Origin: Patescibacteria group bacterium
Lineage (GTDB): Bacteria > Patescibacteriota > Minisyncoccia > Minisyncoccales > GWA2-38-27
Assembly (NCBI GenBank): GCA_020148045.1
Contig: JAHCRG010000006.1
Span: forward strand, 137,909 to 201,908
Length of the DNA: 64,000 nt
Reading direction: 5' to 3'
The translations under genes and the position numbers were made by a program. The first letter of the stretch is position 1. Each line of letters starts with the position of its first letter. Below, one piece after another: positions 1 through 28,381 of the stretch. The notes below the pieces were generated by a model. That model was not told the origin of the DNA. It did not search any database and saw only the letters and a program-made list of their open reading frames with translations.

Positions 1-456
1 TTGGAGTTAGATAATCCGCCAAATTATGGATATACTTATTCAACAGATGAAAATCCCACAAAAGAAGAAGACCATACAATGGAAATTACCGGTCTTTTGT
101 CAAATACAACTTATTGCTATCGTTGTGTTTCTCATGGTTCTTTGGCAGTGAGCACAGAGCATAGTTTTACTACTCTTAGTGTTATAGGAGAACAAGAAGA
201 AGAGGAGGAGGAAGAGGAAGAAGAACTAGGCCCAATAGTAGGCGAGGAAGAAGAGGAAGAGGAAGAAGAGGAGGAAGAAGAGGAGGAGGAAGAAGAAGAA
301 GTTGTTGAGGGGGAAGAAACGGGACTGGGCTGGCTCTTAGCAGCAATCGGTGATTTGTTTAGATTGGAGAATCTCTGGTGGCTTTTACTACTTCTTATAA
401 TTATAATAATTATTTTGTTTTTGTTATCTCGTAAGAAGAAAAGAAAAGAAGAATAA
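1..456 (+). CDS. C-terminal fragment of a surface protein: FN3-like beta domain, poly-Glu linker, C-terminal TM anchor and KKKRKEE tail. The 5' end lies outside the window.
   Basis: The ORF is open from base 1. It has an LSNTTYCYRCVS...FTT motif typical of FN3-like domains, two long E runs, then the hydrophobic stretch LWWLLLLLIIIIIILFLL followed by basic residues. Confidence 0.6.
   Translation: MELDNPPNYGYTYSTDENPTKEEDHTMEITGLLSNTTYCYRCVSHGSLAVSTEHSFTTLSVIGEQEEEEEEEEEELGPIVGEEEEEEEEEEEEEEEEEEEVVEGEETGLGWLLAAIGDLFRLENLWWLLLLLIIIIIILFLLSRKKKRKEE
190..303 (+). repeat. GAA/GAG-rich low-complexity tract encoding poly-glutamate
   Basis: Direct reading shows two runs of gaa/gag codons, at 190-226 and 241-300. 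Confidence 0.9.
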
Positions 457-471
457 AAAAGCCTTTCTATA

Positions 472-500
472 CTGCCCGAGGCCCGTCCTCGGGCAGTTTT
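472..500 (+). terminator. Intrinsic terminator, copy 1 of a triplicated GC-rich hairpin
   Basis: ctgcccgagg-cccg-tcctcgggcag followed by tttt. Identical hairpins occur at 4210 and 5541. Confidence 0.8.
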
Positions 501-521
501 GGTATAAAAGGGGTGTGAGGG

Positions 522-550
522 TTGACAAAATTCTTAGGTTGTGATAAATT
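522..550 (+). promoter_or_regulatory. Sigma70-type promoter of the csgEFG-curlin operon
   Basis: TTGACA (522-527), 17-nt spacer ending in TGa, then TAAATT (545-550). Paralogous promoters lie at 4279 and 5585. Confidence 0.6.
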
Positions 551-575
551 ATAGAATATTTAATCCGAGGTATTT

Positions 576-622
576 AATCCGAGAGGATTGATTTTTATCT
601 TGGCGGTTCGTTTAAAACTTAA
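576..622 (+). promoter_or_regulatory. Conserved 5' leader element (small GNRA hairpin plus U-run), copy 1
   Basis: A 47-nt block, aatccgagaggattgatttttatcttggcggttcgtttaaaacttaa, is repeated exactly at 4343-4389. It contains AAUCC-GAGA-GGAUU followed by GAUUUUUAU. Confidence 0.55.
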
Positions 623-722
623 TTGGATAGAAAGTTAAAGAAAGGAGATGACAGTGAGAAGATAGAAAAAAAGGTAATTGTTGTTTAGAAAGCAATGTAT
701 AAACAAAGAAAGGAGAAAACGA

Positions 723-1508
723 ATGAAAAGATTTTGGATGATTTTGGTATTGATGTTGGCCCTGGGTTTAGTTTTTACTTTGGCTGTTCAAGCAAAGCAG
801 GAAAAAACAGAGGAGGTAAAAAAAGAGCCGGCAGAAACAGCATGTACAGCATGTGTTGTTGATGCCAGAAAATGTCGTGGTTTCAACAACGTAATGTATG
901 GTGTAGTTTCTTTTAGAGAGGTTTGGAATAGTTCTAAATTTACTCTTCAAAAAGTATGTGTCGTAAAAGGTGACAAACCCAGCGTTTGGAGTTTTGAGGG
1001 TCGTGTAGCGGTTGTTTCTGAGATTACAACAACACAGCAAAAAGAGGCGAAGCAGCAAAAAGAGGTGAAACCCGAGAAAACTTCTGCAGCAGAAGAAAAA
1101 TTAAGCAGGTCAATTGGAAAAATTGAAGAAGCAGAAAGAGCAGCAACAAAAAGAGAAATAGCAGCAGAAGAAGAACTGATGGAAGAAATAACCGGGTTAA
1201 TTATTGAGCAGACCATGACCAAGATTGGTTATGAGTTCTACGAAAACTTCTTCATTCGTTGGGAAGCGCCAAAAGGGATTAAGGGCTACAACATCTTTAT
1301 TGACGAGAGAGCCAGTCCTCTATGGGGAAGCTGGATTCAGATTAAGGTTGATACAACCATGGTTTGGAGCAAAGTGCTTAAACCAAGGTCTGAAGAGATT
1401 GAGGAAGCAGCCAAACAAGCTGTTGAAGTAACCAAGGGATTTCTCTCTCGCTATGAAGAGTACAAAAGAGAGCTTGAAGGACCAGACATGGTAGGCAGCG
1501 GTATTTAG
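723..1508 (+). CDS. csgE: CsgE-like curli secretion specificity factor with an approx 130-aa N-terminal extension
   Basis: The C-terminal GLIIEQTMTKIGYEFYENFFIRWEA...IDERASPLWGSWIQIKVD aligns by eye with E. coli CsgE (GLLTDHTVSSIGHDFYRAF...INERPSARWGSWITITVN). There is a signal peptide from the ATG at 723, and an RBS aaaggag lies 7 nt upstream. Confidence 0.8.
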   Translation: MKRFWMILVLMLALGLVFTLAVQAKQEKTEEVKKEPAETACTACVVDARKCRGFNNVMYGVVSFREVWNSSKFTLQKVCVVKGDKPSVWSFEGRVAVVSEITTTQQKEAKQQKEVKPEKTSAAEEKLSRSIGKIEEAERAATKREIAAEEELMEEITGLIIEQTMTKIGYEFYENFFIRWEAPKGIKGYNIFIDERASPLWGSWIQIKVDTTMVWSKVLKPRSEEIEEAAKQAVEVTKGFLSRYEEYKRELEGPDMVGSGI

Positions 1509-1579
1509 GAGGGATTGTTAAGGAACGTGTAAGGTATTTGAAGAAAGTGTAAATTTAATCCAAAGAAAGGGGAAAGAAA

Positions 1580-2014
1580 ATGAAACGATTAGTGATGTAT
1601 GTTATTTGCGGCATTGTTTGCGTTTTGTTTTTAATGCCGGCAACTGAAGCCACAGCCACAGAATTGGTGTTTGAGTTCATAAACCCGTCTTTCGGCGGTT
1701 CGCCGTTTAATGGACCGTGGATGTTAGCTCAAGCAGAGGCCCAGAACAAGCTCGTAGAGAAGCAAAAGCCGTTTACAATGCCAAAGAGAGACCCGATACA
1801 GGACTTTGAAGATAGTCTGAATCGGCAGATACTCTACCAGATGTCAAGAAAGATAGTGAGTTCAGCATTTGGCGAGGAAGGCCTTGAGCCCGGTCAGTAC
1901 AGCGTAGGCGATTACACAATTGATGTGACGGTTGATGTCATCAGTGGCATAAAAGTTACTATAACTGACACCGTAACTGGAAACTCAACCACTGTAAAAG
2001 TACCCTATTATTAA
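1580..2014 (+). CDS. csgF: CsgF curli assembly/channel-capping protein
   Basis: Signal peptide followed by ELVFEFINPSFGGSPFNGPWMLAQAEAQN, compared with E. coli [27 protein letters not shown]. The C-terminal DYTIDVT...VTITDTVTGNSTTVKV matches DYIVDIA...LNVTDRKTGQTSTIQV. Confidence 0.88.
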   Translation: MKRLVMYVICGIVCVLFLMPATEATATELVFEFINPSFGGSPFNGPWMLAQAEAQNKLVEKQKPFTMPKRDPIQDFEDSLNRQILYQMSRKIVSSAFGEEGLEPGQYSVGDYTIDVTVDVISGIKVTITDTVTGNSTTVKVPYY

Positions 2015-2029
2015 GAGAGGAGGTAAGAA

Positions 2030-2950
2030 ATGAGAAGAATACTGAATATTGTGATTATGGCAGCCATGCTAATGGCACTTGTTCTTCTGTCTGGCTGCGC
2101 TACTACGATGGCTTCTATGTATACCGAGCGGGCAACTATGGCATTTACTACTGCTATTCATCAGGATTTGATTTCTCTGCCTCCGCCGGAAGAAAAAATT
2201 GTGGTAGCAGTTTATAAGTTTAGGGACCAGAGCGGACAGTACAAGCCTCATCCTGCCGCAGTCAGTTTTTCAACAGCTGTTACTCAAGGAGCTACTTCAA
2301 TGCTGAATAAAGCTCTTGAAGATTCTGGCTGGTTTATCCCTATAGAAAGGGAAGGATTGCCTAACTTGTTGAACGAGAGGAAAATCATTCGTTCAACAAT
2401 GATGCAGTATCAAGCCCAAAACAGTGAAGGCGAGAATTTACCGCCTTTACCACCTTTGCTCTATGCAGGTGTACTTTTAGAGGGAGGCATAATTGCCTAT
2501 GAAACCAATTTAGTTACCGGTGGTTTCGGACTCAGATACTTTGGCTTAGGCGGTTCTACCGAGGCAAGGAAAGACCAGGTAACCATTTATTTGAGGGCTG
2601 TAGCTGTCAAGAATGGCAAGATTCTTAAATCTGTCTCAACCACCAAATCCATTCTTTCCAGAGAAGTGAATTTCGGTGTTTACAGATTTGTCAGAGTCAA
2701 GAGGTTGTTGGAGGCAGAAACCGGTTTATCCACTAATGAGCCTCCGTCAATGTGCGTCCTGGAAGCAATAGAGAAAGCTGTCTACGACCTGGTTGTAGAA
2801 GGCATTCAGGACGGCCTCTGGAATTTGAGAAATCCAGAGGACATCAACTCTCCGCTTATTCAGAAGTATTTAAAAGAAAAAGAAGCGACAGAGAAGATAG
2901 TTACCTTTGACGAAGAAGGTAACTTGGTAGCAGTTAAGGACGTTGAATGA
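2030..2950 (+). CDS. csgG: CsgG curli secretion channel lipoprotein
   Basis: Lipobox LLSGC. Full-length similarity to E. coli CsgG (VAVYKFRDQSGQYKP, STAVTQGATSML, WFIPIEREGLPNLLNERKIIR, SILSREVNFGVYRF, TNEPPSMCVLEAIEKAV). Confidence 0.92.
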   Translation: MRRILNIVIMAAMLMALVLLSGCATTMASMYTERATMAFTTAIHQDLISLPPPEEKIVVAVYKFRDQSGQYKPHPAAVSFSTAVTQGATSMLNKALEDSGWFIPIEREGLPNLLNERKIIRSTMMQYQAQNSEGENLPPLPPLLYAGVLLEGGIIAYETNLVTGGFGLRYFGLGGSTEARKDQVTIYLRAVAVKNGKILKSVSTTKSILSREVNFGVYRFVRVKRLLEAETGLSTNEPPSMCVLEAIEKAVYDLVVEGIQDGLWNLRNPEDINSPLIQKYLKEKEATEKIVTFDEEGNLVAVKDVE

Positions 2951-3053
2951 TTTCTATCCAGTATAGGCATAGACAGAGATGAAAGAAAGAGAGGTAATTT
3001 ATGAACAGAAGGATTTTAATAGTAACAATGGCTTTGGTAATTCTTCTTGGTTT
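2918..3053 (+). repeat. 136-bp duplicated block, copy 1 (csgG 3' end, intergenic region, RBS and curlin signal peptide)
   Basis: Matches 4392-4527 with a single mismatch by direct comparison. Confidence 0.9.
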
Positions 3054-3978
3054 ATCCGGCTTGGCTCTTGCTGATGGTAATACCAGCACTGTCGATCAGA
3101 CCGGCAACGACAACAGAGCTAGGGTTAGCCAAGATGGCAGTGGTAATGAAGCCACTATCACCCAGGAAGGCGATGACAACGTTGCTTCTCAGAGTCAGAC
3201 CGGCGACGAGGACATTGCCATTATCACCCAGACAGGCAATGGGAACACAGCTTACCAGTCCCAGACCGGCAGCACTAACAACCAAGCCACTATTGTGCAA
3301 AACACCAGTGGCACTGGGAATATTGCTAGCCAAACCCAGAACGGCAGTTGGAATATTGCCTTGATTCAGCAAATTGAAAGTAGTACTCTCAATACTGCTG
3401 CTCAGGTCCAGACGGGTATTGGGAACGATGCCTCGATTGAGCAGAGTGGGTCCGCAGCTGGGAACACGGCTAACCAAACCCAGATTGGAACCGGCGTCGC
3501 CTGGAACATAGCTAAGATACGGCAGAGGGGAAAAGACTCCATCGCCAGGCAATACCAGGACGGCCGTGGCAACGATGCCTATATTGGCCAGTTTTCATCT
3601 TACAACTATGCTGCACAGAACCAGACAGGTGAGTACAATGGGGCCAAGATTATGCAGTTTGCCGCACACAACATTGCTTACCAAACCCAAGTTGGTATCT
3701 CCAATATTGCTGAGATTGAGCAGCGGGGAGTTGGAAACTATGCTCGACAAAACCAGACAGGTGATGACAATGAGGCCAAAATTTCCCAGAACCCGTACCC
3801 TAGTGATGGTGGCGGCAACGTAGCTTACCAAACTCAGAACGGTAACGGCAACTATGCTGAAGCTACGCAGGTTGGTTGGAACAATTGGAGTTCTCAGACC
3901 CAGACCGGTGACTTCGATTCGAGCATTGTTACTCAGATAGGGGATGGTAATGTAGCTACGGTTGTCCAAACTCCGTAA
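3001..3978 (+). CDS. csgA: Curlin-repeat amyloid subunit (CsgA/CsgB-like), 325 aa with approx 25 strand motifs
   Basis: Signal peptide (..GLALA), then iterated Q-x-G-x-x-N-x-A-x-x-x-Q units, for example VSQDGSGNEATITQEGDDNVASQSQTGDEDIAIITQTGNGNTAYQSQ. Confidence 0.88.
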   Translation: MNRRILIVTMALVILLGLSGLALADGNTSTVDQTGNDNRARVSQDGSGNEATITQEGDDNVASQSQTGDEDIAIITQTGNGNTAYQSQTGSTNNQATIVQNTSGTGNIASQTQNGSWNIALIQQIESSTLNTAAQVQTGIGNDASIEQSGSAAGNTANQTQIGTGVAWNIAKIRQRGKDSIARQYQDGRGNDAYIGQFSSYNYAAQNQTGEYNGAKIMQFAAHNIAYQTQVGISNIAEIEQRGVGNYARQNQTGDDNEAKISQNPYPSDGGGNVAYQTQNGNGNYAEATQVGWNNWSSQTQTGDFDSSIVTQIGDGNVATVVQTP

Positions 3979-4053
3979 GTTAAGTCAATGTTTTAACCCG
4001 GAGCAATAGTGCTCCATAGAATTTTCATCTTGTCTATATTTGGAAGAAATAAA

Positions 4054-4083
4054 CCCCCACTACCAATTTCATTGGTGTGAGGG
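4054..4083 (+). terminator. Imperfect hairpin of the CCCCCAC(T/A)ACCAA...TTGGTGTGAGGG family, 3' of curlin gene 1
   Basis: cccccactaccaa-atttca-ttggtgtgaggg. A second, better terminator (gggcgagga...tcttcgccc plus T-run) follows at about 4133-4170. Confidence 0.45.
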
Positions 4084-4209
4084 TAAACCTATTACTACCA
4101 GAAATTTTTTTGAAGTTTTGGTGTGAGGGTGAAGGGCGAGGATTAAAAAAATCTTCGCCCTGTTTTTATTTTTTATTTCCATTTCCGATTTTTTTTACAT
4201 TTCTATTTT

Positions 4210-4236
4210 GCCCGAGGCCCGTCCTCGGGCAGTTTT
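4210..4236 (+). terminator. Intrinsic terminator, copy 2 of the triplicated hairpin
   Basis: tgcccgaggcccgtcctcgggca plus tttt. Confidence 0.8.
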
Positions 4237-4278
4237 GGTGTAGGGGTTGACCCCCACTTTTGTTAGTTTGAATGGAGG

Positions 4279-4307
4279 TTGACAATCTTCTTTGGTTATG
4301 ATAATTT
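4279..4307 (+). promoter_or_regulatory. Sigma70-type promoter of curlin gene 2
   Basis: TTGACA (4279-4284), 17 nt ending in TGa, then TAATTT (4302-4307). Confidence 0.6.
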
Positions 4308-4342
4308 ACAAGATATCTAAAAATCAATTCGTTAAAGGAAAA

Positions 4343-4389
4343 AATCCGAGAGGATTGATTTTTATCTTGGCGGTTCGTTTAAAACTTAA
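4343..4389 (+). promoter_or_regulatory. Conserved 5' leader element, copy 2
   Basis: Exact 47-nt repeat of 576-622. Confidence 0.55.
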
Positions 4390-4391
4390 AA

Positions 4392-4424
4392 GGTAACTTG
4401 GTAGCAGTTAAGGACGTTGAATGA
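4392..4424 (+). pseudogene. 33-nt relic of the csgG 3' end (GNLVAVKDVE-stop) carried by the duplication
   Basis: Identical to csgG 2918-2950, but no csgG body lies upstream of it. Confidence 0.8.
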
Positions 4425-4474
4425 TTTCTATCCAGTATAGACATAGACAGAGATGAAAGAAAGAGAGGTAATTT

Positions 4475-5380
4475 ATGAACAGAAGGATTTTAATAGTAAC
4501 AATGGCTTTGGTAATTCTTCTTGGTTTGTCTGGATTAGCTTTTGCCGATGGGAATGTGAGCACGGTCAATCAGACCGGCGCTGGCAATAGTGCTACGGTT
4601 AGCCAAGCTGGTATTAACAACGATGCTGAGATTACTCAAAATGGCAATGGGAACGTTTCTTCTCAGAGCCAAGCCGGCCCTGTTGGTAATAACGAAGCTA
4701 AGATTCTCCAGGTTGGTAACACGAATATTGCTTCCCAAGACCAGAGGATCGGCAACAACCTGGCCGAGATTAAGCAGACCAGTACAGGTAGCAACCTTGC
4801 TTCTCAAATCCAGTGGGGCCAATGGAATATTGCCCTGATTGAGCAAATTGAAGGGAGCAACGGCAATAGGGCTTACCAAGTCCAGCTCAGTAAAGGCCAC
4901 AATGCTTATATTAAGCAGGACGAGAACGCAACTGGCAACTATGCTTCTCAAACCCAGTCTGGTGGTCCTGGGATGGGCGGCGAGAACACCGCTGGGATAT
5001 GGCAGAGCGGAGACTCCGCCACTGCCATTCAGAACCAGACTGGTAATGTGAATGGTGCCTACATTAGGCAGAGAGGCGTTGCCAGCCGGGCTTACCAAAC
5101 CCAATATGGTATCTCCAACGCCGCCTTTATTGTCCAGTTCTCATCTGGAAACTATGCTGCACAAGACCAGACAGGTGAGGGCAATGAAGCCAGGATTCGG
5201 CAGTTTGGCGGTGACGGCAACGTAGCTTACCAAACCCAGAACGGTAACGACAACGATGCTTTCGCTACGCAGGTTGGTTCTAGTAATTTCAGTTCTCAGA
5301 CCCAGAACGGCACCAGCGATTTCAGTGTTGTCCAGCAGATAGGAAACGGTAATGTGTCTACGGTTGTCCAAAGCAACTAA
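4475..5380 (+). CDS. Second curlin-repeat amyloid subunit (CsgA/CsgB-like), 301 aa
   Basis: The first 17 residues match the 3001 gene exactly, the next 8 differ at 2 positions, and the repeats then diverge (VSQAGINNDAEITQNGNGNVSSQSQ...). The C-terminal IGNGNVSTVVQ is paralogous to IGDGNVATVVQ. Confidence 0.88.
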   Translation: MNRRILIVTMALVILLGLSGLAFADGNVSTVNQTGAGNSATVSQAGINNDAEITQNGNGNVSSQSQAGPVGNNEAKILQVGNTNIASQDQRIGNNLAEIKQTSTGSNLASQIQWGQWNIALIEQIEGSNGNRAYQVQLSKGHNAYIKQDENATGNYASQTQSGGPGMGGENTAGIWQSGDSATAIQNQTGNVNGAYIRQRGVASRAYQTQYGISNAAFIVQFSSGNYAAQDQTGEGNEARIRQFGGDGNVAYQTQNGNDNDAFATQVGSSNFSSQTQNGTSDFSVVQQIGNGNVSTVVQSN

Positions 5381-5540
5381 GTCAATGTTTTAACCCGGGG
5401 CAATAGTGCTCCATAGAATTTCATCTTGTTTATGTTTGGAAGAAATAAACCCCCACTACCAATTTCATTGGTGTGAGGGTGAAGGGCGAGGATTAAAAAA
5501 TCTTCGCCCTGTTTTTTTCGATTTTTTTACATTTCTATTT

Positions 5541-5568
5541 TGCCCGAGGCCCGTCCTCGGGCAGTTTT
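5541..5568 (+). terminator. Intrinsic terminator, copy 3 of the triplicated hairpin
   Basis: tgcccgaggcccgtcctcgggca plus tttt. Confidence 0.8.
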
Positions 5569-5584
5569 GGTATAAAAGGAAGGT

Positions 5585-5613
5585 TTGACAATCTTCTTTG
5601 GCTGTGATAATTT
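5585..5613 (+). promoter_or_regulatory. Sigma70-type promoter of the beta-barrel protein gene
   Basis: TTGACA (5585-5590), 17 nt ending in TGa, then TAATTT (5608-5613). Nearly identical to the promoter at 4279. Confidence 0.6.
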
Positions 5614-5852
5614 ACAGGATAGTTTGAAACCAATTCTTTGAAGGAAAGAATTAGGAGAATTGGTTTTTAACGGTTCTTTGAAAATTTAAGAAAGGAGGTG
5701 ATGGAAATGGAAAGAAAAATGCCAAGAGAGCCACCCGGAGAATAGATTAAGCCAGAAAATGAAGTATTTGTTTTGGCAGTCAATTGTATTTTGTAGGAAA
5801 TTTTATTGAAAAGAAACTGTTTTTTCACAATTAAATTCAGAAAGGAATTGTT

Positions 5853-6671
5853 ATGGAAAAGAGATTGTTACTGTTAGTTGTGGTGCTTGTGGTGGTTGGT
5901 TTGGGGAGTTCTCCTGCTTTTGCCTTAGACCCGATGGGGCCTCCAACAGGGAACCTGAGACAGGGGCAGTCTCAAGCAGGGATTGATTACTCCTACAGCA
6001 CAATGGACCTTAAATTAACCAACGGTAAATGGACTGAGTATAAAAATGGAAGGTTTTACGACTCAGGAGAAGCGTTTTCCTTGACCCTCAAGAATTTCAA
6101 GATGAATAAGGTATATGCCAACTTTGGATATGGCATCTTTGACAACTGGGACCTATTTTTGCGTTTAGGCGGAGCAGACGCCAAATTTGGTGACTCAATC
6201 TGGGAAGAAGGAGAAAAATTTGATGGCCCGGCTAGTTTTACAATTGGCTTTGGTACCAAAGCAACCTTTTATCAAGAGGGTCCTCTCAAATTGGGCGGAC
6301 TGTTTCAAGCAAGTTGGGCTGATTTGGATGGGCATCTAAAAGCAAAGGACTGGGCTGACTCTGTTGATATTGAGCTTACTGAGATGCAAATCGCTATAGG
6401 CCCAAGCTATGAGCTGGCAGACGGTGTTTCTATTTACGGCGGCCCCTTTTTCCATTTCGTTAATGGCGATTTAGATGATAATTTTAGTGAGACGTGGAAC
6501 GGAGATGTCTTGAGTTCGAAATACTCCTGGGATATTGGTGAGGCCTCTACTTTCGGTTATTATATTGGTTTTCAGGGAGTGAACCTCACCGAAAACATTT
6601 TTCTCAACATCGAGTACCAGCGTACAGCATCAGCTGATGCTCTTGGTCTGAAGCTCATCTGGAGATTTTAG
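5853..6671 (+). CDS. Outer-membrane beta-barrel-type protein (OMP_b-brl / porin-like), 272 aa
   Basis: Signal peptide ending in PAFA. Alternating amphipathic strands rich in G, Y and aromatic residues. The C-terminal LKLIWRF ends in Phe, a typical BAM beta-signal. Confidence 0.6.
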   Translation: MEKRLLLLVVVLVVVGLGSSPAFALDPMGPPTGNLRQGQSQAGIDYSYSTMDLKLTNGKWTEYKNGRFYDSGEAFSLTLKNFKMNKVYANFGYGIFDNWDLFLRLGGADAKFGDSIWEEGEKFDGPASFTIGFGTKATFYQEGPLKLGGLFQASWADLDGHLKAKDWADSVDIELTEMQIAIGPSYELADGVSIYGGPFFHFVNGDLDDNFSETWNGDVLSSKYSWDIGEASTFGYYIGFQGVNLTENIFLNIEYQRTASADALGLKLIWRF

Positions 6672-6681
6672 TCAAAACTAA

Positions 6682-6720
6682 GCCGAGGAGGTAGCTATCT
6701 TTACCCCTCGGCATTTTTTA
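6682..6720. terminator. Hairpin terminator between convergent genes, at the compositional boundary
   Basis: gccgagg...cctcggc followed by atttttta. Confidence 0.65.
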
Positions 6721-6736
6721 TGAAGCCCGACTTCAC

Positions 6737-8467
6737 TTAATTCATCTCTATTTTGTAAACTTCTGAGTTGTTGAGAAGATGGATTGTTTTGTTGTCTGAG
6801 GAGATATCAAGATCTTTGAGATTATCAAATTTTTGGCTTTGGAATTGCTTGATGATTTTGCCTTTTTTATCAATAATAACAACTCTGTTTTTTACTGGTT
6901 CTAAAAGATAAAGATAGGGGATATCTGCTTTGGTTTTGATTTGAGTAATATTTTCTGGAAATGGGAAGAAATCAGGGATTATAGTTTCTTGAAAAGAACC
7001 AGCATAGTAGCGAAGGACTGAATTATCTTCGTTCAAAATCCAAACTGAACCGTCAACTGTCATTGATTTTGGCTCAGAGCAAGGGCCTTTATCTTTCGTC
7101 CATTTTTTAGGAGAGCCCCAATTTAGAGCCCCTAAGAGAGAATATTTAATAATCTCGCAAGTTTTTTTGTCTAAGAAGTAAAGATTGGAAAGGTAAGAAG
7201 CGGATAAATCAAAATTAAATTCAAATGAAGGTGGGTCAACAAGAGAGCTGGAAGGAGAAGAGAACAAGCTTGAATCCGGTTCATTTACAAGTTCGGGATT
7301 TTCAATCTTTTCTAATTTGTTTAAATTTTCCAAGTTTTCTTCAATTGATTGTTTTAAATCAATTATATCAGAAGTTTTTGTTTCGGTTAAAGGTAAAATT
7401 TCTTTCCAGGCCTCTTTAAAAAGAGAATTGGCTTCTTCTTCGTTTTTAAAAATTAAAAAGCTTTCTGCCTGATTAACTTTTTCTTGTATCTTAGCTAAAG
7501 AGGTTCTAATTTCTTTTTCTTTTCTTCCCACTGCTTGTTTAAAAATTAAAAATCCCAGGAGGAGAACAGAAGCTAAGACAAGAATCAGAATTAGCTTTTT
7601 CTTAATGTTTGTCTTGGGACGAAGTTTTTCTATTATAGGGCCTGGTGTAGGTATTTTTATTTTTGGCAATTTTATCTTTGGCAAATTTGGCTTTTTGATA
7701 ATCTTCGGAAGTTTAAAGGGAAATCTAATTTTTGGAAAGGAGAATTTCTTTTCGCTTTGAAAAAGAATCGCTTTGCCTCTTTTTGTTGGTTCTGTTTTTA
7801 CAACAGAGAGGAGGCAAGTCCCAGAAACTTTTGAGCCCTCGCCTTTAGTAAAAAGAGAAGAGGGTAAAATTTCTTTTATTTTTTTTCCATTAATATTTTC
7901 GCTTTGAGCGATTTTAGTCAATAGATTTTGCTGAAGGAAAAATTCAAAAATCTCCTTGGTCAAAACCAAGATTTTATCATCTTGAGTTAATTTGCCTGAA
8001 ACAACATTAAGAAAAATTTTCAAAGGATAGGGTTCAATTTCCCGGAGGTCTAAGTTTTTACCAATATCAATTATTTGTCCGGCTCTTAACAGCAAAATTT
8101 TAATATCGCCGGTTTTAGTAAAAATTAAATTAAAATCTTTTAAAGAAAAAACAGCAAAGTTTAAGTTTCCCAGCCAGCTGACATTTTCCTTTTTTACTTT
8201 TTCAGCTAAATATTCATTTGTTTTTTTTAAACTTTGCGAAAGAGCTTTTTCAGGAAATTTTTGGGAAAAAGTATAATAGCTTTTCTTGATAGCTTTAGCA
8301 ATATCATCTAAAAGTTTTAGATTTTGGGGCAGAACGTTCCGAAGTTCTCCAACAACGTATAAATTTCCTAGGTTCTTCTCGTAGATATTTTCCGGTTCAT
8401 AAATAAAACTGTCAAAGATTTGGTCTTCTTTTAGTTTAGGGTTAAAATGTAGTTCAAATACTTGCAT
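6737..8467 (-). CDS. Hypothetical membrane protein: N-terminal weak PP2C/SpoIIE-like region, central TM, C-terminal beta-rich domain
   Basis: Long ORF. I prefer the start at MQVFELHF (8467), because the longer ORF start at 8509 lies only 5 nt from tRNA-Val (8514). TM segment LILILVLASVLLLGFLIF. The functional assignment is weak. Confidence 0.6.
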   Translation of the reverse strand: MQVFELHFNPKLKEDQIFDSFIYEPENIYEKNLGNLYVVGELRNVLPQNLKLLDDIAKAIKKSYYTFSQKFPEKALSQSLKKTNEYLAEKVKKENVSWLGNLNFAVFSLKDFNLIFTKTGDIKILLLRAGQIIDIGKNLDLREIEPYPLKIFLNVVSGKLTQDDKILVLTKEIFEFFLQQNLLTKIAQSENINGKKIKEILPSSLFTKGEGSKVSGTCLLSVVKTEPTKRGKAILFQSEKKFSFPKIRFPFKLPKIIKKPNLPKIKLPKIKIPTPGPIIEKLRPKTNIKKKLILILVLASVLLLGFLIFKQAVGRKEKEIRTSLAKIQEKVNQAESFLIFKNEEEANSLFKEAWKEILPLTETKTSDIIDLKQSIEENLENLNKLEKIENPELVNEPDSSLFSSPSSSLVDPPSFEFNFDLSASYLSNLYFLDKKTCEIIKYSLLGALNWGSPKKWTKDKGPCSEPKSMTVDGSVWILNEDNSVLRYYAGSFQETIIPDFFPFPENITQIKTKADIPYLYLLEPVKNRVVIIDKKGKIIKQFQSQKFDNLKDLDISSDNKTIHLLNNSEVYKIEMN

Positions 8468-8513
8468 GATAGTTCTATTTATTATAATATATATAAAAAT
8501 GGTGAGCAATCTT

Positions 8514-26974: not shown

Positions 26975-28381
26975 TTATTTGCAGGCTTTAATTTTCGGGC
27001 CTTCTTTTGTGTCTTTAATCTGATAGCCCATTTGTTTGATTTTTTTTCTTATTTCATCAGCTAATTTCCAGTCCTTTTTTTTACGGGCTTGCTCTCTTTG
27101 TTTGACTAATTTTTTGACAGACAAGGAGATTTTAACAGCTTCTCTTTTACCCCAAAAGATAAAACTAAAAACTTTATCAACTTCCTTTAAAAATTTTAAA
27201 ATATCTCTGGCATCTTTAGAAGTGAGTTTATTTTTGTTGAGCAGTAGATTGCCTTGATTGACTAATTGAAATATTGAGGCCAAAGCCCTTGGCGTGTTAA
27301 AATCATTTTCCATATGGTCTTCAAAATCCTTTTTAATTTTTGAAATTAGATTTTTAGCAATTTTTGTTTTTTGTTTCTCGTTTCTTATTTTCTGTTTCTT
27401 GATTTTATCTAAAAATTCGTCAATTCTTTCCAACTGCCTCTTGACTTGGTCAATCTCTTTTTCGCTATAATTGATAGGGGAGAGGTAATGAGTTTTGAGA
27501 ACAAACAGACGGAGAATTCTGGCTGAATGATTTTTTAAAAAGTCCTTGATAGTAATAAAATTGCCAAGAGATTTTGCCATCTTTTTTCCTTTGACAGTTA
27601 AAAACCCAGTATGAAGCCAATATTTTACCATTGGGCTTTTGCCGGATATAGCTTCCATCTGGCTAATTTCAGCTTCATGATGAGGGAAGATTAAATCTTT
27701 TGCTCCGCCGTGAATATCATACTGGGGCCCAAAATATTTTTCAGTAATAGCAGTATCTTCAATATGCCAGCCAGGACGCCCAGGTCCCCAGGGACTGGGC
27801 CATTTTGGTTCTCTTTTTTTTGAGAATTTCCATAAGCAAAAGTCACCCTTGTTCCTTTTATCTTTTGCCTCGTCAATTCGGGAAACAGCGTCCTCGGCTT
27901 GAACAGCCGTCCTTCCAGAGAGCTTGCCATAATTTTTAAATTTAGAAATGTCATAATAAATCCCGTCTTTTATTTGATAAGCAAAACCTTTGTCCAGTAA
28001 TCTTGTGACTTGGCTAATGATTTCTTTAATGTGAGCTGTTGCCCTGGCATACTTGGTAACACTATTTACATTCAGGGCTTTCATATCTTTTAAGTATTCT
28101 CTTTCAAATTTCTGAGATAAGTTCTTCCAAGAAACCTTTTGTCTTTTTGCTTGATTTATAATCTTATCATCAACATCAGTAATATTTTGAAGATAAAAAA
28201 CATCATACCCCTTTTGCTTGAGATATTTAGCTATCATATCAAAAACAATATAGGTCCTTGCATGACCAATATGAGAAAAGTCATAACTTGTTATCCCGCA
28301 GACAAAAAGATTTATCTTTTTACCTCTTCTGGATTTTAAAATCTCTTTCTTTCTGGTTAAAGTATTGTAGAGTTTGAGCAT
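26975..28381 (-). CDS. cysS: Cysteine--tRNA ligase
   Basis: HIGHARTY and KMAKSLGN (HIGH/KMSKS), plus the CysRS-specific WPSPWGPGRPGWHIE. Confidence 0.93.
   Translation of the reverse strand: MLKLYNTLTRKKEILKSRRGKKINLFVCGITSYDFSHIGHARTYIVFDMIAKYLKQKGYDVFYLQNITDVDDKIINQAKRQKVSWKNLSQKFEREYLKDMKALNVNSVTKYARATAHIKEIISQVTRLLDKGFAYQIKDGIYYDISKFKNYGKLSGRTAVQAEDAVSRIDEAKDKRNKGDFCLWKFSKKREPKWPSPWGPGRPGWHIEDTAITEKYFGPQYDIHGGAKDLIFPHHEAEISQMEAISGKSPMVKYWLHTGFLTVKGKKMAKSLGNFITIKDFLKNHSARILRLFVLKTHYLSPINYSEKEIDQVKRQLERIDEFLDKIKKQKIRNEKQKTKIAKNLISKIKKDFEDHMENDFNTPRALASIFQLVNQGNLLLNKNKLTSKDARDILKFLKEVDKVFSFIFWGKREAVKISLSVKKLVKQREQARKKKDWKLADEIRKKIKQMGYQIKDTKEGPKIKACK

Follow-up and report, generated by a model that had tools for sequence, protein, structure and literature searches.

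The 64,000-nucleotide (nt) stretch examined here (JAHCRG010000006.1, positions 137,909 to 201,908; hereafter the window) belongs to a 165-kb metagenome scaffold and includes a curli (type VIII secretion) locus with two curlin genes. It raises the question of how such a locus gains a second subunit gene whose ends match those of the first almost base for base and whose middle does not. The tandem duplication is real and well preserved, its scars are readable, and its ends appear to have evolved in concert. Sequence comparison indicates that it probably arose by tandem duplication followed by patchy gene conversion of the flanks.

The locus is a curli operon in the order promoter, leader, csgE, csgF, csgG, curlin 1, and a second curlin gene follows it. 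A lipoprotein CsgG, CsgE together with CsgF, and a curlin-repeat subunit are all present. The Pfam assignments for csgE, csgF, csgG and both curlins all exceed the curated cut-offs. Lengths of products are given in amino acids (aa).

723..1508, + strand: csgE, product with a long N-terminal extension (Pfam CsgE PF10627, 89 bits; cut-off 25)
1580..2014, + strand: csgF (Pfam CsgF PF10614, 145 bits)
2030..2950, + strand: csgG (Pfam PF03783, 220 bits against a cut-off of 20.8), with a lipoprotein signal
3001..3978, + strand: curlin 1, 325 aa, about 13 two-strand repeats (Pfam Curlin_rpt PF07012, 90.7 bits, cut-off 20.7)
4475..5380, + strand: curlin 2, 301 aa, about 12 repeats, monocistronic (Pfam Curlin_rpt PF07012, 73.1 bits)

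The lipobox of CsgG reads LLSGC in the translation. Against the NCBIfam enterobacterial equivalog the protein scores 263 bits and does not reach the cut-off of 505, as expected of a distant member. No + strand terminator was found between csgG and curlin 1, nor any before 4133, and curlin 1 would therefore be co-transcribed with csgEFG.

The first-pass annotation of this DNA had described 2918-3053 and 4392-4527 as identical apart from one base. This is correct (135/136), the sole mismatch being G at 2967 against A at 4441. The identity starts two bases earlier, at 2916/4390, which gives 137/138 over 2916-3053 and 4390-4527, and it stops sharply at 3053/3054, falling to 71% one base on. The content of this 5′ block is also as described. 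It comprises csgG codons 297–306 and the stop codon (2918-2950), an intergenic spacer of 50 nt with a ribosome-binding site (49/50 identical between the copies), and the first 53 nt of the curlin open reading frame (ORF), i.e. 17.7 signal-peptide codons (53/53). The flanks on the other side of the curlin genes were likewise said to be paralogous, and the paired features are as follows (UTR, untranslated region).

2916..3053, + strand: 5′ block, copy 1, with csgG tail, spacer with ribosome-binding site and signal-peptide codons 1–17.7 (137/138 against 4390-4527)
4390..4424, + strand: non-coding relic of the csgG 3′ end, made up of 2 nt, 10 codons and the stop (35/35 against 2916-2950)
4425..4527, + strand: second copy of the spacer with its ribosome-binding site and of the first signal-peptide codons (102/103 against copy 1)
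3979..4087, + strand: conserved 3′UTR, copy 1 (99/103 against 5381-5483), also kept in related loci L067, L068 and L147
5381..5483, + strand: conserved 3′UTR, copy 2 (99/103 against 3979-4087)
4133..4161, + strand: curlin terminator, copy 1, kept in relatives
5483..5510, + strand: curlin terminator, copy 2, paralogous to copy 1

The 3′ pair starts at about 3981/5378 rather than at the 3985/5386 noted earlier; a second comparison puts the later of these starts at about 5382. The terminator regions 4118-4168 and 5468-5517 match at 49/50 positions, and beyond the terminators 4183-4242 and 5515-5574 match at 57/59. An alignment in which the flanks were not significantly more alike than the bodies would have spoken against the annotation. 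Flank identity proved significantly higher on both sides (Fisher p = 9e-13 for the 5′ side, where 137/138 in the block is set against 108/151 directly adjacent, and 1e-5 for the 3′ side). The chance of one mismatch or none in 138 nt at the divergence of the body is 4e-19.

Two further features of the 3′ regions may be recorded. The curlin 3′UTR has a hairpin, GGAGCA-ATAG-TGCTCC, that is kept across species; in L067 (4976-5130) a nested hairpin of 36 nt has been inserted in its loop and the outer stem is retained. Only the 3′ region of curlin 1 has a 46-nt insert (4084-4129), which repeats TTGGTGTGAGGGT.

The repeat-encoding bodies have diverged as strongly as the annotation had claimed. Nucleotide identity is 71.5% over codons 18–68 (108/151), 67% in the centre and 77% over the last 57 codons, and the mature proteins are 57% identical. 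Over codons 19–325, the synonymous divergence (dS) is 0.75 and the non-synonymous divergence (dN) 0.37 (NG86); by block, dS ranges from 0.43 to 1.1, with 0.98 for the ungapped codons 19–68 and 0.43 for the last 57 codons. The first 17 codons show no difference (dS 0). Among conserved body residues, 46/160 (29%) are specified by different codons, against 0/16 at the start of the ORF. Over the whole body dN/dS is about 0.5, and no block reaches 1.

Curlin 1 contains an internal duplication of two repeat units, 3570-3664 and 3702-3796, at a spacing of 132 nt and with 64% identity. Curlin 2 positions 5116-5210 are 81% identical to the first of these units (3570-3664). Owing to the internal duplication, the central alignment of the two curlins is ambiguous in register.

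Strand positions in the two curlins were classed by the published kernel N-$-Psi-$-Psi-$-Q (PMC10192328). Between curlin 1 and curlin 2, 44/48 inward positions (92%) and all 24/24 strand-end Gln residues are the same, against 22/71 outward positions (31%) and 49% of turn positions. The net charge of the mature protein is -16 for curlin 1 and -8 for curlin 2. Strand units ending in Gln number 26 in curlin 1 and 24 in curlin 2, and the AlphaFold2 (AF2) model of curlin 1 has 26 evenly spaced seven-residue strands (pLDDT 82.5). Both proteins match the CsgA of PDB entry 8c50 in sequence (E = 7e-23 for curlin 1 and 2e-19 for curlin 2); a Foldseek search of the curlin 1 model against PDB gave only non-significant matches to beta-helices, with the solved CsgA at E = 0.37. 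Thus, the "diversifying evolution of the amyloid core" that had been offered as one explanation finds no support in dN/dS, in the inward positions or in the Gln residues. As judged from this classification, the predicted fibre surface has diverged and the predicted amyloid core is conserved.

Related loci were found through CsgG; a word-indexed protein search with curlin 2 was empty at E <= 1e-20, even for the query itself. Loci with CsgG 84–91% identical to that of the window are L067, L148, L068, L069, L149-L151 and L147, and in the collections searched no CsgG closer than 91% was found beyond the 100% match. Comparison with these genomes had been suggested in the annotation, and the curlin copy number does vary, with two genes in the window and one in each of six related loci. 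L067, L148, L068, L069, L147 and L149 all have csgEFG followed by one curlin where the sequence reaches far enough. In L068 and L147, csgG-curlin runs straight into a gene for a 590-aa protein, after which L147 shares the downstream genes of the window. More distant curli loci that were fetched have 1–7 curlin ORFs each, and in several of them neighbouring curlins have 5′ flanks that are 85–95% similar.

These relatives give a time scale. The dS of csgG between the window and five of them is 0.30–0.35 (NG86). The 5′ blocks are at a distance of 0.01 from each other within the genome, and at 0.10–0.21 from the orthologous blocks. Among the sites with a common state in all relatives, eight carry a derived base in both copies of the window, and no derived base is confined to one copy. 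Both copies also have a 6-nt insertion in the spacer that the relatives lack, and both curlins begin with MNRRILIVT where every relative has MSKKVLT[VI][AV]. The csgG tail stretch of 35 nt differs from L067 at 3/35 positions, and from other relatives at more. Over their C-terminal block, the two curlins of the window are closer to each other (0.21) than to any other sequence compared (0.26–0.29), which fits divergence in place. Divergence is therefore discordant along the cassette, with sharp boundaries, and derived states are shared within the tract, as is characteristic of gene conversion. Old bodies beside young flanks exclude both a recent duplication with fast selection and selection alone on the flanks, and leave either homogenisation of the flanks or replacement of a body. 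Of the two alternatives put forward in the annotation, homogenisation of the flanks by gene conversion is favoured by the body dS, the shared derived sites and the 6-nt insertion.

The extent of the repeated unit is defined by features outside the curlin genes. A module found at 471-622, 4208-4389 and 5540-5690, and nowhere else in the window, combines a G+C-rich hairpin and its T run with a leader and, between them, a sigma-70-like promoter (TTGACA, 17 nt, TG-extended -10). The three copies precede csgE, curlin 2 and a 272-aa ORF (5853-6671), respectively. In addition, the end of a convergent gene has left short relics.

471..497, + strand: hairpin T1, terminator-like, GCCCGAGGCCCGTCCTCGGGC followed by a T run, 3′ of the upstream gene; first of three copies
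522..550, + strand: predicted promoter P1 of the csgEFG-curlin 1 operon (TTGACA, 17 nt, TAAATT, upstream TG; 10/12 match to consensus)
576..622, + strand: leader segment L1 (47/47 identical to 4343-4389)
4195..4210, - strand: 16-nt relic of the 3′ end of the 590-aa gene, its reverse complement reading K I E M stop; collinear with L147 (...IEM-stop) and L068
4208..4232, + strand: hairpin T2 (46/47 identical to the T3 region)
4279..4307, + strand: predicted promoter P2, private to curlin 2 (core 30/33 to P3)
4343..4389, + strand: leader L2 (identical to L1, 47/47), ending at the junction with the csgG relic
5527..5542, - strand: second 16-nt relic of the end of the 590-aa gene (K-I-E-M-stop)
5540..5564, + strand: hairpin T3, copy 3 of the hairpin
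5585..5690, + strand: predicted promoter P3 and leader L3, third module copy, identified by comparison of the modules
6737..8509, - strand: convergent gene of 590 aa, the 3′ end of which is the source of both 16-nt relics

L2 adjoins the csgG relic directly at 4389/4390, and hence cassette 2 reads like the operon minus 623-2915, i.e. without csgE, csgF and most of csgG. The sequence TTACATTTCTATTTTG after each curlin terminator corresponds, in alignment with L147 and L068, to the final four codons (K-I-E-M) and the stop of the convergent gene for the 590-aa protein. The presence of these relics after both curlins means that the repeated unit spans from the hairpin to a point inside the 590-aa gene. 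Collinear segments with dead fragments of neighbouring genes at their boundaries, and the single-copy state in relatives, identify a tandem segmental duplication. The annotation had postulated duplication of a csgG tail plus curlin segment. The tandem arrangement with the csgG relic stands, but the unit is larger than proposed and also takes in the hairpin, promoter and leader and the 16-nt relic. The real 590-aa gene (6737-6760, - strand) now ends in ...KIEMN-stop, and both relics and L147 keep ...KIEM-stop; thus, the stop region of this gene was altered after the relics had been copied.

The middle module has a mosaic make-up. The hairpin matches copy 3 at 46/47 positions, the promoter core matches P3 at 30/33 and the leader end matches L1 at 47/47, and the stretch after the -10 element matches the L067 csgE leader at 26/31 positions, a piece that has been lost from P1. 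The P2 core matches P1 at 26/33 positions and the L067 csgE promoter at 28/33. Overall, the promoter cores differ by 9–21% among the three copies and by 12–15% from L067. Since the cores are about as far apart from each other as from L067, the multiplication would date from roughly the time of the species split, and the identical patches would be secondary. In L067, L148 and L127 the promoter motif is kept 5′ of csgE, where the promoter module is single-copy. The hairpin is absent from related loci and was found only in the window organism among the 151 loci fetched. The module was also considered as a mobile or genome-wide repeat; this was rejected because it occupies only three sites in 64 kb and occurs once per related locus.

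Downstream of each promoter copy, the leader is predicted to fold as a long attenuator-like hairpin followed by a U run (565-600, 4319-4365 and 5625-5672; 1926-1975 in L067). Between copies 2 and 3 there are paired, stem-preserving changes, AAATCAATTC/GGATTGATTT against AAACCAATTC/GAATTGGTTT. The folding z-scores are modest (-1.1 to -2.8) and the hairpins have no Rfam match; no known RNA family was found by Rfam in 1-7000 or in the leaders. The csgE leader also holds a very short ORF.

648..665, + strand: mini-ORF in the csgE leader, MTVRR-stop (or MRR-stop from GTG at 654), read from the sequence, with AAGGAG 5′ of it

A Shine-Dalgarno sequence with a tiny ORF (642-665 in the window) is kept in L067 (MTMKR-stop, about 2022-2046) and in L147 (MTMRK-stop, 24-47). 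It is missing from the leader of curlin 2, and the leader of the 272-aa ORF has a different ORF of 14 codons (5703-5747).

The following history would account for the locus. A unit that starts at the hairpin 5′ of the operon promoter and takes in the last 16 nt of the convergent gene may have been multiplied in tandem, at about the time of the split from the nearest sampled species. In the second copy, the part corresponding to 623-2915, which begins just after the leader and ends 35 nt short of the csgG stop, would then have been removed, leaving hairpin, promoter and leader joined to csgG tail, spacer, ribosome-binding site, curlin 2, 3′UTR and terminator. A third copy of the promoter and leader would drive the gene for a putative beta-barrel outer-membrane protein (OMP), the 272-aa ORF. 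Later gene conversion probably acted on short tracts, namely L1/L2, the block from csgG tail to signal peptide, the 3′UTR with the terminator, and hairpins 2 and 3, and left the promoter cores and curlin bodies diverged. A single recent unequal crossover of modules 1 and 3 as the sole event was rejected, since the promoter core of copy 2 and the curlin body are old.

The transcript predicted from P1 would contain leader, csgE, csgF, csgG and curlin 1 and would be closed by two terminators in a row, at 4133-4161 and 4208-4232. P2 would drive a short transcript of leader, csgG relic, conserved spacer and curlin 2. The copied promoter suggests that the dosage of curlin 2 is uncoupled from that of the machinery and that regulation is still shared. 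Likewise, the identical signal peptides and ribosome-binding sites suggest a shared export route. Given also the kept inward core, both curlins should use the same CsgG, CsgE and CsgF and could stack together.

The alternative to gene conversion of the flanks that survives best is that the body of one cassette was imported or swapped by homologous recombination with a foreign curlin allele, the flanks serving as homology arms and no conversion taking place within the genome. Curlin bodies are indeed hypervariable between species and their flanks conserved; the dS of curlin orthologues is 0.65–1.46, against 0.30–0.35 for csgG in the same pairs, and the distance to orthologues is 0.10–0.21 in the 5′ block and 0.25–0.40 in the body. 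The N-terminal block of curlin 1 lies at p = 0.25 from the L149 curlin and at p = 0.28 from curlin 2. The stop-codon context is of two types common across species; curlin 1 and L067 have QTP-stop and a TAAGT duplication, and curlin 2, L068 and L147 have QSN-stop or QGN-stop. Relative-rate tests are asymmetric with L149 or L067 as the outgroup and balanced with L068. A faster evolution of curlin 2 was rejected, since the result shifts with the outgroup. On the other hand, the body of curlin 2 is no closer to any sampled relative than to curlin 1, and in the C-terminal block the window curlins are mutually nearest. Import also leaves the identity of the non-coding csgG relic and of leader L2, as well as the mosaic promoter module, unaccounted for. 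We therefore consider import as the whole explanation rather unlikely.

Some of these observations nevertheless weigh against duplication followed by gene conversion, in particular the L149 affinity of the N-terminal block, the outgroup-dependent rate tests, and the interspecies dS of curlin orthologues of 0.65–1.5, well above that of csgG. To them are added the following. No second genome of the lineage with two curlins was found in the collections searched, and conversion is deduced from one genome and outgroups. The third unit holds a non-homologous gene, that for the OMP, which simple tandem triplication does not explain. The junction of leader and relic shows no microhomology. The repeat alignment is ambiguous in codons 166–268, so that dS there is rough, and the sequence comes from a metagenome scaffold. 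The curlin genes may also be shaped by recombinational allele replacement, and the hypervariable curlin body between arms conserved across species means that allele exchange may contribute beside the gene conversion that we favour.

The three other explanations are far less probable. Purifying selection acting only on the UTRs, ribosome-binding sites, signal peptides and terminators of an old pair would agree with the retention of spacer, 3′UTR and terminator in L067, L068, L147 and L149. Selection of that kind is very improbable as the sole cause, because the same block differs by 10–21% between species and by 0.7% within the genome, the eight derived substitutions, the 6-nt insertion and the derived signal peptide are common to both copies, 35/35 positions of the csgG relic match although it is non-coding in copy 2, and 17 codons show zero synonymous changes.

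A very recent duplication, with the bodies racing apart under diversifying selection and no conversion, would explain the flanks of 99% identity, the single curlin of the nearest relatives and an identity of just 31% at outward residues. It is hardly credible in view of the body dS of 0.75 and the 29% of codon changes at conserved residues, with differences starting at the codon that straddles 3053/3054, of a dN/dS that never exceeds 1 in any block, and of a copy 2 promoter core that is 9–21% from the other two. That the divergence is an alignment artefact of shuffled repeats is argued against by the ungapped codons 18–68, with a dS of 0.98. Finally, an assembly artefact joining two strain variants of a single-curlin locus is highly improbable, for although the scaffold is a short-read metagenome product with exact repeats of 86 and 51 nt and the 47-nt leader repeat that could mislead an assembler on the pairing of body and 5′ block, no common k-mer at the 4389/4390 junction could have led to a false join, the sequence of the P2 region (4243-4342) is unique, each 3′UTR copy has private indels, and two contig records, of 165 kb and 207 kb, show the curlin 2 protein next to the same genes.

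The annotation had further raised the possibility that one copy took on the nucleator role of CsgB. Neither curlin reaches the cut-off of 165 for the CsgB equivalog NF007506 (129.9 for curlin 1 and 76.7 for curlin 2) or that of 160 for the CsgA equivalog NF007470 (76.7 and 50.1). For both, the CsgB model gives a higher score than the one for CsgA, and NCBIfam does not distinguish a CsgA-like copy from a CsgB-like one. Their final repeats are alike and also resemble those of the single curlins of relatives, which manage with one curlin. Hence, a CsgB-like role is assignable to neither.

In Escherichia coli and Salmonella, curli are encoded by csgBAC and csgDEFG (type VIII secretion), and the window resembles them in having CsgE, CsgF, a lipoprotein CsgG and two curlin-repeat subunits. 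It differs in that csgEFG and a curlin form one operon in this order and the second curlin is monocistronic, and in that the locus includes neither csgD nor csgC. Its subunits have 12–13 repeats instead of 5 and no Gly-rich N22 segment, the curlins fall below the NCBIfam CsgA and CsgB equivalog cut-offs, and CsgE is N-terminally extended. Elsewhere, several dissimilar csgA/B homologues per genome are known, and CsgA and CsgB are indistinguishable outside the Gammaproteobacteria (Dueholm et al. 2012, PMC3521004). Curlin copy numbers reach 30 (Sleutel et al. 2023, PMC10192328), and 8c50 is the solved 15-repeat CsgA of Pontibacter korlensis. The more distant loci fetched here accord with these two surveys. 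Multi-curlin loci outside the Gammaproteobacteria are like that of the window in their several curlins and similar 5′ flanks (85–95% elsewhere). In the window, however, csgG tail, fused operon leader and neighbouring-gene relic are scars that can still be read, flank identity is 99%, and the nearest relatives are single-copy.

Converted paralogues in bacteria share the features seen here, namely mosaic identity, sharp tract ends, shared derived states and diverged middles that encode exposed surfaces. Gene conversion between bacterial paralogues, and surface genes with conserved ends and a variable middle, are familiar from examples such as tufA/tufB and the flagellin genes fliC/fljB. Unlike in these, the tracts in the window are mainly non-coding regulatory sequence and signal peptide. 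Since multi-curlin loci and concerted evolution are already well known, the current understanding of curli is unchanged. What the locus adds is a view of how a curli locus gains a subunit gene, with legible break-points and with a new gene that inherits the promoter and leader of the operon. Regulatory and export signals appear to stay identical while the fibre surface, and not the amyloid core, changes. The pair can be used to ask whether extra curlins alter fibre surface chemistry or nucleate, and how far curlins may drift and still co-polymerise.

The apparent host of the locus is a more surprising point than the duplication, and the third module copy precedes the gene for a further protein of outer-membrane type.

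5853..6671, + strand: predicted beta-barrel outer-membrane-type protein, 272 aa, 3′ of P3 (AF2 pLDDT 91, Foldseek)

The model of this OMP has long antiparallel strands, and Foldseek matches it to OmpT/Pla, NalP, a COG4313 channel and FapF barrels. About 500 homologues are found among 1.8 billion cluster representatives. With tblastn, no homologue was found in any related locus, the only matches being the window itself and L001. In the CsgG homologues P0044, P0048 and P0114 (66–72% identical, 459–491 aa) an OMP_b-brl Pfam domain is fused C-terminally, and many other CsgG homologues are 340–520 aa long; by BLASTP, the OMP is not similar to the C-terminal OMP_b-brl domains of such homologues. With the promoter-leader module triplicated and placed before a second curlin and a predicted beta-barrel OMP, the curli system appears to be being built up here.

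The host chromosome appears to be that of a member of the Patescibacteria (candidate phyla radiation, CPR). NCBI labels both CsgG and the cysteinyl-tRNA synthetase (26975-28381, - strand) "Patescibacteria group bacterium", and named relatives of the synthetase, at 68–74% identity, come from Patescibacteria, Parcubacteria DG_74_2 and Nealsonbacteria. Elsewhere the window has ordinary chromosomal genes, and its 64 kb showed no gene for outer-membrane biogenesis. As a group, Patescibacteria are usually regarded as lacking an outer membrane, yet the curli secretion system encoded here is of outer-membrane type and complete. Literature searches turned up no paper that describes curli from CPR or Patescibacteria. 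L068 and L147 have the curli system at this chromosomal site too, and four further related loci have csgEFG-curlin operons like it. If taxonomy and function both hold, this CPR lineage might have an outer-membrane-like layer, or might put CsgG and the beta-barrel to an undescribed use such as attachment to host cells, a suggestion that we offer as tentative and somewhat doubtful. The combination thus bears on the questions of the CPR envelope and host attachment.

CsgE of the window is 261 aa long, and the Pfam CsgE domain covers only residues 156–256. Its N-terminal half is an extra Cys-containing, Lys/Glu-rich region that is variable in length among relatives, where csgE products have 183–234 aa. 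The gene upstream of the operon (1-456) ends with a very long Glu-rich low-complexity run, encoded by GAA/GAG repeats at 190-330, followed by a membrane anchor. Its homologue in L067 (736-1872) encodes 378 aa with a Pur_ac_phosph_N (FN3-like) domain.

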